Shown: positions 4,650 to 18,526 of the stretch, piece by piece
Layout: each line of letters starts with the position of its first letter
Position numbering within the stretch: the stretch's first letter is position 1
Assembly: GCA_021432655.1 (NCBI GenBank)
Contig: MU271405.1
Location: forward strand, 49,891 to 69,890
Source: Atractiella rhizophila
Lineage: Eukaryota
DNA length: 20,000 nucleotides
Direction: 5' to 3'
Program-made: the position numbers and the translations under genes
The notes under the pieces: model-generated
Seen by the model: only the letters and a program-made list of their open reading frames with translations
Databases searched by the model: none
What the model was told of the DNA's origin: nothing

Positions 4650-5926
4650 TTAGGCGAATTGTAACTGACATCCTACATCGTTAAGGAGGTTTCCGCTCTC
4701 CCTTTTTCCGTACACCACGTCGGATTGAGTGATCCTATATGAAGAAGGGATTACTGCCTCCTCTGTTACAGCCAGTCAGATGCTTACCTCGAGTTGAATT
4801 TGAGGATGCTCTTGTAAGCGAGGTATTGATCGACCGAGATCTCGAGCGGCTTGTCGACCACGTACCAAGAGACACCCTTTCCACGGGAACAAATTCACGC
4901 CAAGTTAAAGTGGTAAAGGGAAACGAAACGCACCTCAGAGCATGGGGGTGTGGTCAAGGATCCAGCATAAGTGAAAATGGTGCTTTCAACGAAGGCTTTC
5001 CTCAGGCCCCTATACATGGAGCGAAATCAGGATTAGTTTGTAACAGCGAGATAAAGACTGACGAATAATCGAGGGCTTCAATCTCGGCTTCTGAATCAAT
5101 CTCTCCCAAGGATGATAGGTACGGTTCAATAGCTTGGAATACTGCATCGCCTGGCCCATTAGACAGCTCAACGACAAAGCCTAGGACGGCGGATTTGGGT
5201 GCTACCATTCCAACAAGCGGGAGCAGAATTAGATACACTTGTGGTGCAGAGAGAAAAGCAAAGCGCACGAGTATCAGCGGTGCGGAAAACGAAGTGAATT
5301 TCCATGGGATAGTGCACTGCGTCAGGTGGTTAGTTACATCAGGGAGAGGATGGTAGGAGCTAGAGAGGTAACGGAGAACTTACTGTCGTTAATTCTGTGT
5401 TCGGAAGGAGTATGGTGGTGCCATTGAGCGAGGGTATAAAGCTATCGCAAAATTTATAAATGCCCACAGTCTCAAGATAGAAAAAGCAGAGTGTTACCTC
5501 GCCATTAAAAACTGCTTGTGTCCTCTCCTCTCCTTCGGGTTCTTCATCTAATTCGATCGTCAACCCATCATACGTGATTTTTCTCTTAATGCTATCGATG
5601 AGATTGAGCTGGGTGGTAAGCGCCCATTCGCTTTCATCCGTGGCGATATTCGTAGGCGACTGGTTCTGACCAGTGCTGCAAAGCGTGTTGTTCGCGTTCA
5701 GATTCGCCCAGTTCAGAGGGCCAGTCACGCCACTATAGCCAAACGGAAGTTCTCCAGCACCATCGGGGTCCCGGCGCGACTGTGAGTGTGAGTGCAAGGC
5801 TTTGATGGCTGATGCACCGACGTGGCTTGCCCGTTTGACGTTTGAGATGAAGTTGGGATTTGGACTGGGAAATGCTTGAGCTGTGAGCGCAAAGGCGAAG
5901 AGAGGGAGTGTGTTTGCGACCTTCAT
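4650..5926 (-). CDS. secreted alpha-class carbonic anhydrase, 7 exons
   Basis: Signal peptide MKVANTLPLFAFALTAQA. Motifs FGYSGVTGPLNW, CSTGQNQSPTNI, QWHHHTPSEHRIN, YPMEIHFV, AVLGF, YAGSLTTPPCSE|GVSWYV and KFNSR. All three Zn-binding His are present. Six GT-AG introns splice in frame; stop TAA at 4650-4652. Confidence 0.95.
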
Positions 5927-6916
5927 GTTGAGGATTGTTGAAGAATAATTGAGATGATGCTAGGATGTGTGAAGATAGGAAAAGCTGGAATGAGGAATGG
6001 CTCTTGAGGAAGCAGGCGTATTTTATGTCGTTTGGTCCGCTGGAAAACAAGACCTGAATGCTTGGTGTCGTAAAATACTCAACTAGGATAAATGAAGCAG
6101 AAGAGCTAGGCGAAGAGGGACGATGTGCCCGAGGTCATTCGACTTTTCACTGTTTTCTTTGGATGTGACATCTTGGCAAGCATCCCACCTGCTCCTTGGC
6201 GTCCCCAAATGCAGTTTACCAATCAATTGAGGAACAGACAACGAAGCAGGAATCCGGTGAAGGCGCGGGAGATACTGCACGCCTCCTTGAGCACCTACAT
6301 GATGCGACATCGCACCCAAGCAATCCTGGAACGGGATTCCCGCCTAACCCGACGATGGCTGACACGCTGACACATGATGGAAAAAGACAGCGGAAACGTG
6401 AGCCAGAGATACGGCATCCGGTGCAAACGGCATGAGATCGAGCCATTCTGTCGGCTCAATTCATGACTGCACTTTTGGTCAGCTTTTGACCGTGGCTCGT
6501 CCCAAGGGAAACTCATATCCCTTCTCCAAGTAAGCGCATTTACAGATGCGGAGGCACATTCAGACCTTCAATGAAGACAATGGTTGAAAAAGGCTTGGTA
6601 AGGCGGAAGAAAGCAGGATGACCGTTTCTCGCGTCGGAACGCCTCCGCTGCCTTTGGAATCTCCATCGGCAGAACAAGCAAAGTGGGATGTAAGGCTTTC
6701 ATGCCTAGTCCACGGCATTTCCATCAGCGTTGTTGCTGCAAATCTCGTCTTTTGGATGTTGTGACAATACAACGGTTTTAGTCCCGTGATTTAGTGTCCG
6801 CATTTCCCTTGTTTCCAGGGGAACCTTGTTCTCACACTTCGAACCTTTTTTCCTCCTTTCTCCCGCTCCAGCACTGTCGTGACAGCCTACTGGGTTCTGG
6901 CTTCAAGCACATCTAA

Positions 6917-9365: not shown

Positions 9366-9956
9366 NNNNNNNNNNNNNNNNNNNNNNNNNNNNNNNNNNN
9401 NNNNNNNNNNNNNNNNNNNNNNNNNNNNNNNNNNNNNNNNNNNNNNNNNNNNNNNNNNNNNNNNNNNNNNNNNNNNNNNNNNNNNNNNNNNNNNNNNNNN
9501 NNNNNNNNNNNNNNNNNNNNNNNNNNNNNNNNNNNNNNNNNNNNNNNNNNNNNNNNNNNNNNNNNNNNNNNNNNNNNNNNNNNNNNNNNNNNNNNNNNNN
9601 NNNNNNNNNNNNNNNNNNNNNNNNNNNNNNNNNNNNNNNNNNNNNNNNNNNNNNNNNNNNNNNNNNNNNNNNNNNNNNNNNNNNNNNNNNNNNNNNNNNN
9701 NNNNNNNNNNNNNNNNNNNNNNNNNNNNNNNNNNNNNNNNNNNNNNNNNNNNNNNNNNNNNNNNNNNNNNNNNNNNNNNNNNNNNNNNNNNNNNNNNNNN
9801 NNNNNNNNNNNNNNNNNNNNNNNNNNNNNNNNNNNNNNNNNNNNNNNNNNNNNNNNNNNNNNNNNNNNNNNNNNNNNNNNNNNNNNNNNNNNNNNNNNNN
9901 NNNNNNNNNNNNNNNNNNNNNNNNNNNNNNNNNNNNNNNNNNNNNNNNNNNNNNNN
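9366..9956. other. assembly gap (591 N)
   Basis: run of N. Confidence 1.
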
Positions 9957-9987
9957 CGCCTGTCAGAACAAAGAAACTTTCGCAACG

Positions 9988-12747
9988 ACGTTTTCATTCT
10001 GTTTGCGTCTTGTCTTTACCCTATTTCCTTTGGTAAAAGCAGACACCCAACCTTATGAGAATCCACCGTGTGTCGTCTCCTCGTGCGAACAACACCGAGT
10101 TTTGGTTGGAAGGTGTGAAGCACCAAGGCACTTCTCCATTCCTTGGAGACGAAAGCTTCCAGATTTTTCGCAACGTCAAAGACTATGTAGGCCGCTTTCT
10201 ACTCTTTCAAATGTGGTCGTTGAATGAAGGGAAAGGGGGCTGTGGGTGATGGTGTCGCGGACGATACAGATGCTTTCAATCGCGCCATAACGGACGGGAA
10301 TAGGTGTTTAGGAGGTACTTGCGATGGAGGAGTAACTGGTCGTCCCGTCCGTGAGTCTCCCCTTCCGTCTCTCCCTCCGTCTTACATTCAACAATCGCTG
10401 ATTGACACTGAACGATAAAGTGCTGTACGTCCCGGAAGGTACATACGTCGTCACCTCGAGCGTCCAAGTGACAATTTACACCCAAATCATCGGCAACCCC
10501 CTCTCCCTACCCACGATCAAAGCTTCCTCCAACTTCCGCGCATCCGTCGATTCTGGCGCCGTCCTGAATGGATACGATCCTGGAACCGGTTCAACAACGA
10601 ATTTCTTCATCGGCATTCGTAATATAATCATTGATACGACGGATGTGGATAGCGGCTTCGCACTACCGTTGCTGAACTGGGCGGTCTCGCAGGCGACCAA
10701 CTTGGTCAATGTTCATTTTGAAATGCCCAAGGGGAGTAAGCATTTAGGGATTATCATGGATGGAGGAGACGGTGGGTTTCTCGTCCTCTCGATCGGTTTA
10801 CAGACCTTGATTGCTGTTGCATGAGGAAGGTGGAGGAGGAAGTGGGACCTTCTCAGGAGATCTTTCCTTCAACGGAGGAGCGGTTGGGATACAGCTGAAC
10901 AATCAGCAATACTCCTTCAAGAATCTCGAATTCACCGACGTCGACACAGCGATTCAGGTCCTCCACCTCTTCGTAGGCGTCTTCCAAGGCCTCTCGTTCA
11001 CCAACGTCAACATCGGAGTGGACCTCACGACGATGGACGACACCGGTTCAGTTTCCCTCATCGATTCGAGAGCCCAAAACACCTCCATCGTTCTCAAGAC
11101 GGACAATCAGCGATCAGTTCTCCTTGAGAATATACACAATGAAGACTCAGCTACAACAGTCTTGTTGAATGGTAATGCTGCCGTCAAAGGGTCGGTCGCG
11201 GGAACTTGGGCACTCGGAAACGTATACACAGACAATTCTGGCATCCCCAAGTTCACCTCCGGAGCGACACCTACTACCGATCGTGGCACTCTGACGGCGA
11301 AAGATGGGAAGTATGTCACGAAGGCTCTACCTCAGTATGAACAGTACAGCGCAGAAGCGTTTGCCAGCGTGAAGGATGCAGGCGCCGTGGGAGATGGAAA
11401 GACAGATGATACCAAGGCGATTCAGCAAGCCTTGATGGAGAATGCTGGGTGCCGCCTCACTTACTTCCCCCACGGTGTTTATCTCGTCACAGACACAATA
11501 TATGTTCCTCCTGGTATGATTTCTCTCACATTTGAACAGTTTGCACCAACGGGTCATAAACAGACTCGAGAATCGTAGGAGAGGTCTGGTCCATCGTCGC
11601 GGCTTCTGGGAAAGCCTTTTCCGACGAAAACAACCCAAAAGCCATGGTTCGTCATTTGCTCTTCGTCTTCCTGCTTATTGAAAGAGGTCAAGCTTCGAGT
11701 TGGTGAACCCGGTGAAGTTGGGGTAGCTGAATTCGTCGACATGATTTTCACGGTCGCAGACGCTCTGCCTGGTGCTATCGTCGTTGAAGTGAACATGGCT
11801 GGGGAGATTAAAGGCGATGTGTCTTTTCACAACACTCACATTCGGATTGGAGGTACGGGTCTCGGGTTCTCGAATCAATCCAGCGAACGCTAAGGATAAT
11901 GAACGAACAGGCTCACAAGACAGCAAGACAGAGACAGAATGTCAGGAAGACGGTTCCCCTTGCAAGGCAGCCTTCTTGATGATGCATCTCAAGGAGACGT
12001 CTCAAACATATATGGAAAATATGTGGTTATGGAGCGGTAAGCAGGTGCCTAATGAACGATAGCAATACCCTGACATGGGTCCGATAGCGGATCACGACCT
12101 AGACGCCGATTTTAACCAAGTGATAGGAACCGGTCGAGGCTACCTAACGGAATCGACTAAAGGGTCCTGGTTTGTCGGTACAGGCTCAGAACACCACATC
12201 CTATATGCATATCAATTTCTCAACGCTGCGAATGTCTACGTAGGCATGGCACAAATAGAAACACCATATTTCCAACCAGCTCCACCTGCTCCCACTCCTT
12301 GGAAACCGAATGCTGACTGGAACGATCCGACATTCGACAATTGCCCGGATGGGGACGACAAGTGCCGAATGCAGTGGGCGATTAGGATCGTTGGTGGTAG
12401 TCACCAGAATATCTACGGTGCAGGGTCCTGGGCCTTTTTCAATAATTTTGGTGGATGTGATGGGGATTGTCAAAAAGTCCAGTCTCACCTCTTCGGAAAT
12501 GATACTGGTGACTGACTTCGACATAAAGGATATTTACTCGCTAGAGGGCGACGTCCACGCAACTGTTCTGTATAACATGAACACAAGGTTCGTCAGTTTT
12601 CTGCTCAAATGGACGAAGGATGAGTATATTATCTTCAGATCTGTCACGAACGTGGTGACTGTCAATGGGCAAGGAGTAGCAAAGGCTGCTGACAACTTGG
12701 GGTCTTGGGGAGCCAAGGTGACGGCATACTTAGGACTGTTGCCATAG
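9988..12747 (+). CDS. glycoside hydrolase family 55 exo-beta-1,3-glucanase (Lam55A-like, double beta-helix), multi-exon; 5' end disrupted as assembled
   Basis: Motifs FWLEGVKHQG, FRNVKDY|GAVGDGVADDTDAFNRAI, LYVPEGTYVV, NFFIGIRN, WAVSQAT, a second repeat SVKDAGAVGDGKTDDTKAIQ..YFPHGVYLVTDT, ENMWLWSADHDLD, GTGSEHHILYAY and QIETPYFQP (conserved Glu motifs). Introns splice in frame to TAG at 12745-12747. First in-frame ATG is at 10055; a signal-like segment from 9988 is in another frame. Confidence 0.95.
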
Positions 12748-12935
12748 TACTTCAAGTATTCAACCAGCTTCAATGGATTTATTTCGATACTCTTGTGATT
12801 ACATCCCTGCTCACGTTGCGTTTCTCTTTATGTAAGCCACCACGGACTTATAGCCTATGCTGGAAACAACCACCAAGTTGACCAGTGAAAGGACATCCGA
12901 CGTCTACAGTTTGCAGGTCAAAAGTACAAAGCGCC

Positions 12936-13407
12936 ATGGGAACTCGAGGACTCTTAGGCTTCATTTTCAAGAACGGCACCCGCAAAGCGTCCTACTAATT
13001 GCAGGAGCTCTCTGAAAGTGTCGACAAGGTGACTTGGTGAGTTTCTCTCCTTTTACTATTAGAATTGGATAGATCACCCATCCCAACTTGGTTGGGACAT
13101 GCTCAATCCTCCAACCGACTCGGCCAGTCCAAGAACGATATTGGCCAGCTTTTGGCGACCCCAAAGTGAGCTTGAGCTCCGAAGCCGAATTATTCTCCCT
13201 CATCTGCTCTCTGCGTCTTGGGCACAGGCCTGACGATACCAACTTCCTCGACAACGATGTGTTTTGCAAATGGGTGTCGATTTCATCGATCTCAATGATG
13301 GAGAATGAGTGCAGATAGATGTTTTCCTTGAAACGGTTGCCTTGAACAAAGCGAGGGAGAGCAAGAATATTGTTGAGGAACTTGAAGAGCTGGTTGATCA
13401 ATTGTGA
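12936..13407 (+). pseudogene. pseudogene paralog of the uncharacterised gene at 17492-18088
   Basis: Reads MGTRGLLGFIFKNGTRKASY then TAA (12996-12998). Relative to the intact copy it has a 72-nt deletion, the same intron donor (TG|GTGAGTTTCT), an acceptor changed from GGGACAG to GGGACAT, and a frameshift near FCKWV. The homologous PDDTNFLDNDVFCKW..FIDLN segment remains. Confidence 0.9.
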
Positions 13408-13520
13408 GCTCTATGATGTTGGAATAACGTTACTACATAGTATTATCTTTGCCCTGTGTTTCGCCGTGCTTTTAAGTGAACTTCCTACCCAGGACGCCTT
13501 GCTCGAACAGGAACCACACT

Positions 13521-16795: not shown

Positions 16796-17393
16796 GAATG
16801 GAACTTCGGTGAATGTACGAGTGAACCCTGACTAGTGAGGAGTCGAGTGCAATTGATATCTGTTTGCCAGTGCGCTCCTTCAGTTCTTCCTGCGACTTCC
16901 TGCGAGGCTTCAGATATAAGGCCGGACTGCGATTTACACCATTGATACTACTGTCCATCTCACAAACTGGATGGTGCTGCTGAGAATCAAAACTTTTAAT
17001 TTCGAGAATTTGAACCAGTGAAGAGAAGATAGAGAGGAAATCTAAATTTCTGCAGAATCAACGCGATTCGAGCTTGATATTCAACATCTTACGGGCTTTT
17101 TTGCTTGGCTCATACACGCAAACAAGATTGAATCATAGGTTCTCTGAGAAGAGGCGAGTGCCAACGTCCACCGACGTCCACCTTTCATTAATCTCATTTC
17201 CACTGGGAACTGGTACAATGGGACCTGAGTGACATGTCAAAGAACCTCTAGCTCTGATTTTAGGAGCAATTAGGAGGCTCCGGCCCGCCAGCAGCCTTCA
17301 CATCATCAACGAGTGCTGTCAGTAACGTAAAGTTTCTATAACGTAAAACCTTTCCTTGACCTCTTTTTTCTGTGGGACCGCATACTTCCTCCT

Positions 17394-17399
17394 TATAAA
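17394..17399 (+). promoter_or_regulatory. putative TATA box of the MGTRG-family gene
   Basis: TATAAA about 95 nt upstream of the ATG at 17492, preceded by a pyrimidine-rich tract. Confidence 0.35.
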
Positions 17400-17491
17400 G
17401 GCGTTGATCCTCTCGTTGGCGTGGCCCAAACTTGAAAAGCCAACAAGAAATAGATTGTTCATAAAATCAAGAAAGTAAAGTATAAAGCACC

Positions 17492-18088
17492 ATGGGAACT
17501 CGAGGACTTCTAGGCTTCATTCTTAAGAACGGCACCCGCAAAGGATCCTACAACCACTTCGACTCCTACCCCGACGGCTTGGGGAACGATATCCTTCAGT
17601 TTCTCCTCAATCTCACGCCGGAACAATTGAAGGCGCTCTCTGAAAACGTGGAGAAGGTGATATGGTGAGTTTCTGTCCCTGTGTCTCTCCTTCTCTCTAC
17701 AGTAGTAAGTAGTAGATCCTGACTTGGTTGGGACAGGTTCGATACCCGATCCAAGCCTTCCGAAGAAGTTCAAAAGCGATATTACGAAGCAGGATTCGCC
17801 AACCTCGAAGTCAACGTTCGCTCCACGGCAGACTGGTACTGTCTTCTCAACGGGACCCAAGGCGCGAAGGCACTTCCCCATCTGCTTTCTGGCACTCTTG
17901 GACACATGCCTGACGATACCGCCTTTCTCAAGAACGGTCTCTTTTGCGAATGGGCGTATTTCATCGATCTCAATAAAGAGGCTGGAGTGGAGATAAATGT
18001 TTATGCGCGAGGTGATAATCTCGTCAAGACGGTGACTTTGGACGACGCTAGGAAGAACAAGGGTGTCATGGAGCAGCTGGACGCATGA
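17492..18088 (+). CDS. uncharacterised 174-aa protein (MGTRG / YNHFDSYPDGLG / FCEWAYFIDL family), 2 exons
   Basis: Exon 17492-17664, intron 17665-17736 (GTGAGT..CTGAC..CAG), exon 17737-18088. Product: MGTRGLLGFILKNGTRKGSYNHFDSYPDGLGNDILQFLLNLTPEQLKALSENVEKVIWFDTRSKPSEEVQKRYYEAGFANLEVNVRSTADWYCLLNGTQGAKALPHLLSGTLGHMPDDTAFLKNGLFCEWAYFIDLNKEAGVEINVYARGDNLVKTVTLDDARKNKGVMEQLDA*. The ORF track does not show it as a whole. Confidence 0.88.
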
Positions 18089-18386: not shown

Positions 18387-18526
18387 AAGATAGAGATTTA
18401 TGACCGAGGGACGACCTCATTATGACCACCTTGGACGAAGCTAAGCAGAAAAAGAATATGATGCAGGAGCTTGAAGAGGTCTACCAGAATGAAAGTCGAT
18501 ACGATTACTCCTATATCCTCTCCTAG
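18387..18526 (+). pseudogene. 3' remnant of a third MGTRG-family copy
   Basis: KIEIYDRG/(frameshift)DDLIMTTLDEAKQKKNMMQELEEV aligns to EINVYARGDNLVKTVTLDDARKNKGVMEQLDA of the intact copy and to ALNKARESKNIVEELEEL of the pseudogene. Confidence 0.7.

Follow-up and report, generated by a model that had tools for sequence, protein, structure and literature searches.

What kind of protein is encoded by the intron-bearing gene at positions 17492 to 18088 of the window, a 20,000-nucleotide stretch of contig MU271405.1 of the root-associated fungus Atractiella rhizophila, and what would a fungus do with a gene suspected to be of prokaryotic or viral origin? The original prediction described a two-exon gene for 174 amino acids, and we find it to be genuine and spliced: an ATG at 17492 and a stop at 18086–18088 on the plus strand delimit a 174-residue product, which is identical to the database protein P0003, a 'hypothetical protein' of A. 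rhizophila. Exon 1 (17492..17664) encodes strand 1 with G2-T3-R4-G5 and strand 2 ending in Y20-N21-H22-x-D24-S25-Y26-P27, followed by helices 1 and 2. The 72-nt GT-AG intron (17665..17736) interrupts codon 58 in phase 2 and has a GTGAGT donor, a CTGAC-type branch site and a CAG acceptor, and exon 2 (17737..18088) encodes an inserted subdomain (W91-Y92-C93 ... Q99-G100), F121, the C128-E129-W130-x-Y132 strand, two further strands and the stop. The predicted junction is borne out by contigs from two of the four sequencing runs compared (X1 and X3, from different studies, whose RNA nature is a guess), in which exactly these 72 nt are skipped at the GT..AG junction. The intron is retained in one RNA-run contig (X5), and the contig from X8 spans exon 2 alone. 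About 100 nt upstream of the ATG, the sequence holds a TATA-like box (17393..17400, plus strand), a putative promoter element, and the spliced X1 contig starts within it at 17395.

The gene is also present as an intact allele on a second haplotype of the assembly (contig C452), which is 95–96% identical over the stretches compared, and between the two alleles 6 codons show non-synonymous and 5 synonymous differences. We rejected a recent proviral insertion, as the gene has ordinary fungal neighbours, a flank-like GC content and an intron. Pfam matches were obtained for 4 of 10 fragments flanking it, with types including an enoyl-CoA hydratase, a leucine carboxyl methyltransferase and a pectate-lyase-like protein, and no viral genes were found among the neighbours examined. 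The pectate-lyase-like glucanase gene (PF12708) lies at 10400–12750 on the plus strand of the window; an assembly gap of Ns covers approximately 9370–9960, and a fragment without a Pfam match at 5360–5959 (minus strand) encodes a secreted protein resembling an alpha carbonic anhydrase.

Two further local copies have decayed, in accordance with the expectation that copies of this gene are gained and lost locally. A pseudogene at 12936..13410 (plus strand, end approximate), ∼4.5 kb upstream of the intact gene and found on both haplotypes (also on C452), retains the start motif and the intron donor. Its lesions comprise a 72-nt deletion over the HxDSYP motif, an in-frame TAA, loss of the acceptor and more gaps, and it encodes Lys where the intact gene has E129. 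The second, at 18388..18476 (plus strand) and ∼300 nt downstream of the intact gene, is what remains of a third copy's 3′-end; it scores 91 in alignment against 48.6 ± 5.7 (maximum 70) over 300 shuffles and is matched by blastn at an E of 5e-5.

To which family the protein belongs was addressed by sequence and structure searches. A word-based search with the 174-residue protein gave 1,604 matches at E ≤ 0.1 among 1,753 candidates, with fungal names (Agaricales, Leotiomycetes, Tremellales and others, a patchy distribution across Dikarya) on 28 of the best 120, and a profile built from those 120 recovered 5,944 representatives at 50% identity with E ≤ 0.001 and 1,217 at 1e-30. Scanned with an alignment, IMG/VR contained 137 contigs with the fungal-type subtype, where scanning viral contigs with a single protein instead had given no match. 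A subtype with Gln in place of H22 occurs on 399 IMG/VR contigs, its search patterns overlapping those of the fungal-type subtype, and a short Cys-His subtype on 115. Two scans of GenBank phage records found the family in 23 and 74 of them, and a pattern-limited survey of 185,579 prokaryote species gave 39 loci, mostly in metagenome bins. Among viral structure models, six matches at E ≤ 0.001 were all uncharacterised and include proteins of Orpheovirus (TM 0.73), Edafosvirus and Tupanvirus and gp614 of phage G; the atlas clusters are 53–100% viral and have no Pfam assignment. These searches uphold the view that the gene belongs to an uncharacterised family common to phages, large DNA viruses, some prokaryote genomes and fungi.

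Characterised families offered no name for it. P0003 matches two phage clusters, PHROG 30528 (residues 1–147, E 1.3e-12) and PHROG 1987 (residues 1–36, E 1.7e-4), both without an assigned function and both defined in a way that excludes the fungal, giant-virus and plasmid branches. Pfam contains no family matching P0003 and gave two stray weak matches among 120 members, and no NCBIfam or PADLOC profile came close to its cut-off. Two atlas leads were dropped for scores below 0.9: Prok-E2_D (PF14460; 0.84–0.86, the family covering 15% of the cluster), which had no match in 120 members, and RecE. A literature search, with most subscription papers outside its coverage, turned up no description of the family; the accessible portions of PMC5512222, PMC7824862 and PMC11541004 name no such family, and their supplementary alignments or tables might include it. 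The family, together with its apparent fold, appears to be new.

The residues singled out in the Atractiella protein (the start, HxDSYP and a C-terminal Glu) prove to be conserved family-wide, with weighted frequencies over 356 rows of 0.98 for T3, 0.96 for R4, 0.92 for H22, 0.97 for D24, 0.96 for S25, 0.95 for Y26, 0.96 for P27 and 0.96 for E129. Residue 2 is only ever Gly, Ser or Ala, with Gly at 0.82. Under the rule of Met excision a small residue at this position fits removal of Met1, and a free amine at residue 2 is therefore likely from the sequences. The position of the motif at the extreme N-terminus, also part of the original prediction, is supported by counts of several kinds. A strong Shine-Dalgarno sequence precedes 67 of 104 distinct locus ORFs, three starts being GTG, versus 20 of 359 internal ATGs, in a survey whose pattern missed 10 loci and in which an ATG lies upstream of 9 of the 104. 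Of 268 database proteins, 227 have the motif at residue 1 and 11 have it internally, the other 30 failing the strict motif pattern, and in 15 of 15 long fungal proteins (the mis-joined P0255 left out) the domain likewise stands at residue 1. These start signals indicate that Met1 is the true start in the prokaryotic copies and that the motif is strictly N-terminal. The suggestion of a metal site is weakened by one phage subfamily, in which 68 of 69 sequences, gathered with a pattern that demanded Gln, have Gln at the position of H22.

Two outlying sequences deserve mention in their own right. A divergent member (L021:3647-4411), located 1.4 kb from a second member, has a C-terminal C-x-C ... 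C-x-H motif that we take to resemble a SWIM zinc finger and that has no Pfam match at 0.001. Just upstream of another family gene, a phage ORF (L020:516-1115) with an MGQR start and a YYHWSAY segment is matched by neither profile and is possibly a more distant subtype.

To understand how these residues could be arranged in three dimensions, we analysed predicted models together with covariation. The AlphaFold models of the fungal protein (pLDDT 96.7) and of a 109-residue minimal phage member (pLDDT 92.9) are confident, and both contain an initial beta-hairpin, two helices and a later E-x-x-Y strand. No characterised fold was matched: sequence searches of solved structures gave no match for the family, Foldseek gave none against solved structures at E ≤ 0.001, and VIA-align over 48,161 chains reached a best Z of 2.3 (rmsd 4.0, 86 aligned) for the 174-residue model and 4.2 (rmsd 3.2, 55 aligned, TsaB) for the minimal member, where unmatched models typically reach Z 7–8. 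Missing matches are no proof of novelty, and the modelled fold is new in appearance. The Ntn hydrolases, such as the proteasome beta subunits and HslV, also have a Gly-Thr opening strand 1 of an N-terminal beta-hairpin. They are built as a four-layer alpha-beta-beta-alpha sandwich, however, whereas the family model is one sheet with helices; their mature chain starts with Ser, Thr or Cys, where residue 2 here is mostly Gly and further trimming might expose T3, and they are absent from the fold-search matches listed.

The original prediction asked whether the N-terminal residues, H22, D24 and the Glu form a single pocket, and covariation across 477 rows (effective number 405) supports part of it. 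The hairpin register pairing G2 with D24, T3 with F23 and R4 with H22 has a summed signal of 26 at a mean z of 3.7, which puts G2, T3 and R4 beside H22 and D24; G2, R4, Y20, H22 and D24 would thereby share one face at one end of the hairpin. The place of E129 is a favoured reading only: it joins the pocket if strand 130–135 runs parallel to strand 1, and the parallel offsets 123, 125 and 127 score ∼0.9 each, with one antiparallel register scoring equally. R4 couples to F127 (z 2.7), and S50 couples to both L11 and E139.

Apart from its structure, the family can be approached through the company its genes keep. The short subtype occurs on 2,087 of 72,556 plasmids, 1,886 of them conjugative. A copy on 2,016 IncI plasmids matches the short phage subtype by hhalign at 99.2% (E 3e-19, 112 columns) and differs from it in having lost Thr-Arg, Asp and Glu together, a joint loss as expected of residues forming one site; since this copy persists motif-less on so many plasmids, the motif is unneeded for retention there. 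The IncI gene directly follows ardA in three of three IncI-type plasmids read, in the order ssb-parB-psiB-psiA-ardA, family gene, towards nikAB, so that it sits between oriT/nikA and ssb, behind a structured ssi-like promoter repeat of which two more copies precede ssb and a DUF4942 gene; this leading-region position applies to the plasmid relative and not to the fungal gene. As far as the accessible part of PMC12672017 describes pESBL, six leading-region operons are induced after transfer, three of them driven by ssi1-3, and its labels put hp16-18 beside ardA. By position the family gene there, 142/144 identical to the IncI copy tested, is hp16. Leading regions are enriched in anti-defence genes, and a third of their commonest families are uncharacterised, according to the portion of PMC11541004 available.

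In some records the IncI member (L375:9001-9435, and L382:9547-9981 in pESBL) is labelled 'post-segregation killing protein PndC'. The reading frame of PndC in the pnd locus, which is of the hok/sok type, overlaps the Hok/Gef toxin gene. The Hok/Gef gene of pESBL lies ∼14 kb from the family gene, with no overlap of frames, and the label looks wrong.

On the Enterococcus plasmid pEF01-1 a relative that keeps the motif residues precedes AcrIIA9, and an Acinetobacter relative flanks a PLxRFG polyvalent protein gene. For another copy, also from an Enterococcus plasmid, a leading-region position is not clear. The proposal that the gene takes part in biological conflict is thus strengthened for its relatives, through their conflict-type contexts (ardA, AcrIIA9 and PLxRFG). 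At L377:7814-8615, a 440-nt structured repeat with a second copy at 11918-12322 lies before the Enterococcus family gene/AcrIIA9 operon and is possibly an early-expression promoter. Phage copies lie in stretches of short accessory genes, and DUF932 and gene 88 recur in their neighbourhood; there is no conserved operon partner, the commonest neighbour family occurring at 16 of 226 loci. That neighbour (for example L076:6750-7679), shared by all three phage subtypes, has no Pfam match. In one group of large phage contigs (L009, L011, L039, L047 and L049-L051) a reverse-transcriptase gene directly follows the family gene, and the L049 copy matches RVT_1. Two different subtypes adjoin in six independent elements, which suggests that the subtypes differ in specificity.

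How closely these contexts bear on the fungal protein depends on the sequence path between them, which is transitive. P0003 itself matches two plasmids only and reaches an E of 0.014 against the short-subtype profile. The fungal-type and short-subtype profiles match each other at 97.7% over the first 40 columns only, and the fungal-type profile recovers 19 of 61 short-subtype and 69 of 69 Gln-subtype proteins.

The prokaryotic or viral origin put forward for the gene holds in a modified form. A 371-row FastTree tree places 29 named and 30 unnamed short fungal proteins together on one side of a branch (96) and sets 15 long ones apart at another (100). A 65-row IQ-TREE tree, with 31 hand-picked viral and prokaryotic rows, 5 of the 15 long forms and a bootstrap that had incompletely settled, sets all fungal rows apart from the viral and prokaryotic ones at 89/96. 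The fungal sequences are thus not nested within a phage clade, and because they cluster apart any transfer must be old. At least three subtypes occur on the mobile-element and viral side, and the fungal proteins seen are similar to one of them; from this diversity we infer that the gene came from viruses or mobile elements. Rows from ascomycetes and basidiomycetes are mixed with one another (8 and 7 changes), with monophyly in 0 of 200 bootstrap trees, although no starred branch of the unrooted tree forces this mixing. At agaric-like loci the intron of the 17665-17736 type is absent and a different one lies near codon 118, and three of four such loci have tandem or partial second copies.

The long fungal forms (P0256-P0270, 527–863 residues, from Agaricomycetes and Aspergillus), an undescribed clade, open with the domain at residue 1, lack its inserted subdomain and continue with an unassigned middle domain and an F-box-like segment, which scores above the Pfam cut-off in 1 of 16 long proteins and at E 0.001–0.003 in two more. 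Partner domains on F-box proteins normally bind substrates. The 174-residue Atractiella protein itself lacks an F-box, and when this genome was searched with the F-box form the only match was N-terminal, to the 174-residue gene and its allele. A further apparent fusion, P0255, with the domain inside 1,187 residues and a cytochrome-b5-like end, was discarded as it looks like merged gene models.

The reading that we tentatively prefer, and would rate as quite possible if short of probable, is that of a counter-defence domain acting early, with a predicted pocket at the N-terminus for binding or turning over a small charged ligand. The protein would be soluble, acidic and single-domain, with a new fold, and its family would reside mainly in phages, giant viruses and conjugative plasmids, where it would serve as an early tool against host defence or for host takeover. 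Removal of Met1 would expose the amino group of residue 2 (Gly, Ser or Ala), which with T3, R4, Y20, H/Q22, D24 and probably E129 would form a small polar pocket that binds, and probably turns over, a small charged ligand, for example a nucleotide-type signal or a nucleotide-derived mark on protein. Fungi may have taken up one subtype early, or exchanged it among themselves, and would keep it as a dispensable, often duplicated gene, and in the second fungal clade the domain may serve as the substrate-binding end of F-box-like proteins. The ardA, AcrIIA9 and PLxRFG contexts, the phage accessory genes, the adjoining subtypes, the true N-terminal start, the G/S/A residue 2, the hairpin register and the acidic pI argue for this reading. 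Against it count the lack of a fixed gene partner that would indicate a ligand, the transitive plasmid link, the retention of the motif-less IncI copy, the Enterococcus copy not clearly in a leading region, the ambiguous register of E129, the allelic differences, and the replacement of the family residue R96 by Asn in Atractiella.

Several of the same observations can be read differently. The domain could instead be a non-catalytic acidic binder or decoy like ArdA/Ocr or an anti-CRISPR, blocking a host protein (in fungi, a protein-binding module), with the N-terminal motif as a structural clamp formed by an amine-Asp salt bridge. We consider this rather unlikely, even though the median pI is 4.7–5.1 and each of the four groups has a net charge of −6 to −8, the IncI copy is common despite lacking the motif and occupies an anti-defence operon position, the fungal fusions place the domain where substrates are normally bound, and many invariant residues are Gly, Pro or aromatic. 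A simple clamp would have little need for T3, R4 and D24, which are kept across subtypes otherwise little alike (in counts inflated by the search patterns), and a bacterial protein target fails to explain retention in two fungal phyla. The same free N-terminus, if combined with Arg, His and Glu, would also suit an enzyme acting on DNA lesions, in which the amine is the Schiff-base nucleophile on abasic sites, as in SRAP/HMCES (YedK) or T4 pyrimidine-dimer glycosylase (PMC9436759 and PMC3285167, in the parts accessible), protecting incoming phage or single-stranded plasmid DNA; on plasmids the protein would be produced from DNA that is still single-stranded, going by the accessible part of PMC12672017. 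Those enzymes likewise pair a Met-stripped N-terminus with Arg, His and a carboxylate, but the present family has no Cys2, no sequence match to them and an acidic core, with pI above 7 in 5/70, 0/54, 0/69 and 0/29 sequences of the four groups. Repair or replication genes are not steady neighbours, and we regard a lesion enzyme as distinctly improbable. Neither SRAP nor T4 pyrimidine-dimer glycosylase is among the fold-search matches listed, the best Z scores of 2.3 and 4.2 being to unrelated chains.

A more modest alternative concerns the fungal copy alone, which might be a dispensable leftover or an ordinary metabolic accessory without a role in conflict. Of the three local copies two are dead, there is no clear sign of purging among the allelic changes, the flanking genes are of housekeeping type, and position 96 is relaxed in fungi. 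Yet the gene is spliced and intact on both haplotypes, the full G-T-R-G, H22, D24 and E129 set is present in most of the 29 named fungal proteins from two phyla, and the differing intron positions in agaric-like relatives imply a long residence in fungi, so that we regard this explanation as improbable.

A bolder version of the preferred counter-defence reading, which we consider doubtful, would make the family a new-fold enzyme class whose free N-terminal amine destroys or strips a nucleotide-type immune signal or mark. Phages, giant viruses and conjugative plasmids would deploy several subtypes differing in specificity against host immunity, and fungi would reuse the domain in two ways, on its own as an enzyme and, in F-box proteins, as the end that reads the mark; if true, an immune signal or protein mark would be common to bacterial and fungal immunity.

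An old fungal capture of a mobile-element gene is in itself an already known kind of event. What the analysis adds is that four sets of 'hypothetical proteins' now count as a single family sharing one predicted site. They are the accessory genes of phages and giant viruses, the early gene present on ∼2,000 IncI-type plasmids (PndC in some databases), the Enterococcus plasmid genes that neighbour an anti-CRISPR, and the two clades from fungi. If a free N-terminus is needed, as predicted, N-terminal tags would mask activity. A large family that no solved fold matches and that is found alongside counter-defence genes makes a direct candidate for a new anti-defence mechanism, and its fungal copies pose the question of what use such a tool would have in a eukaryote.
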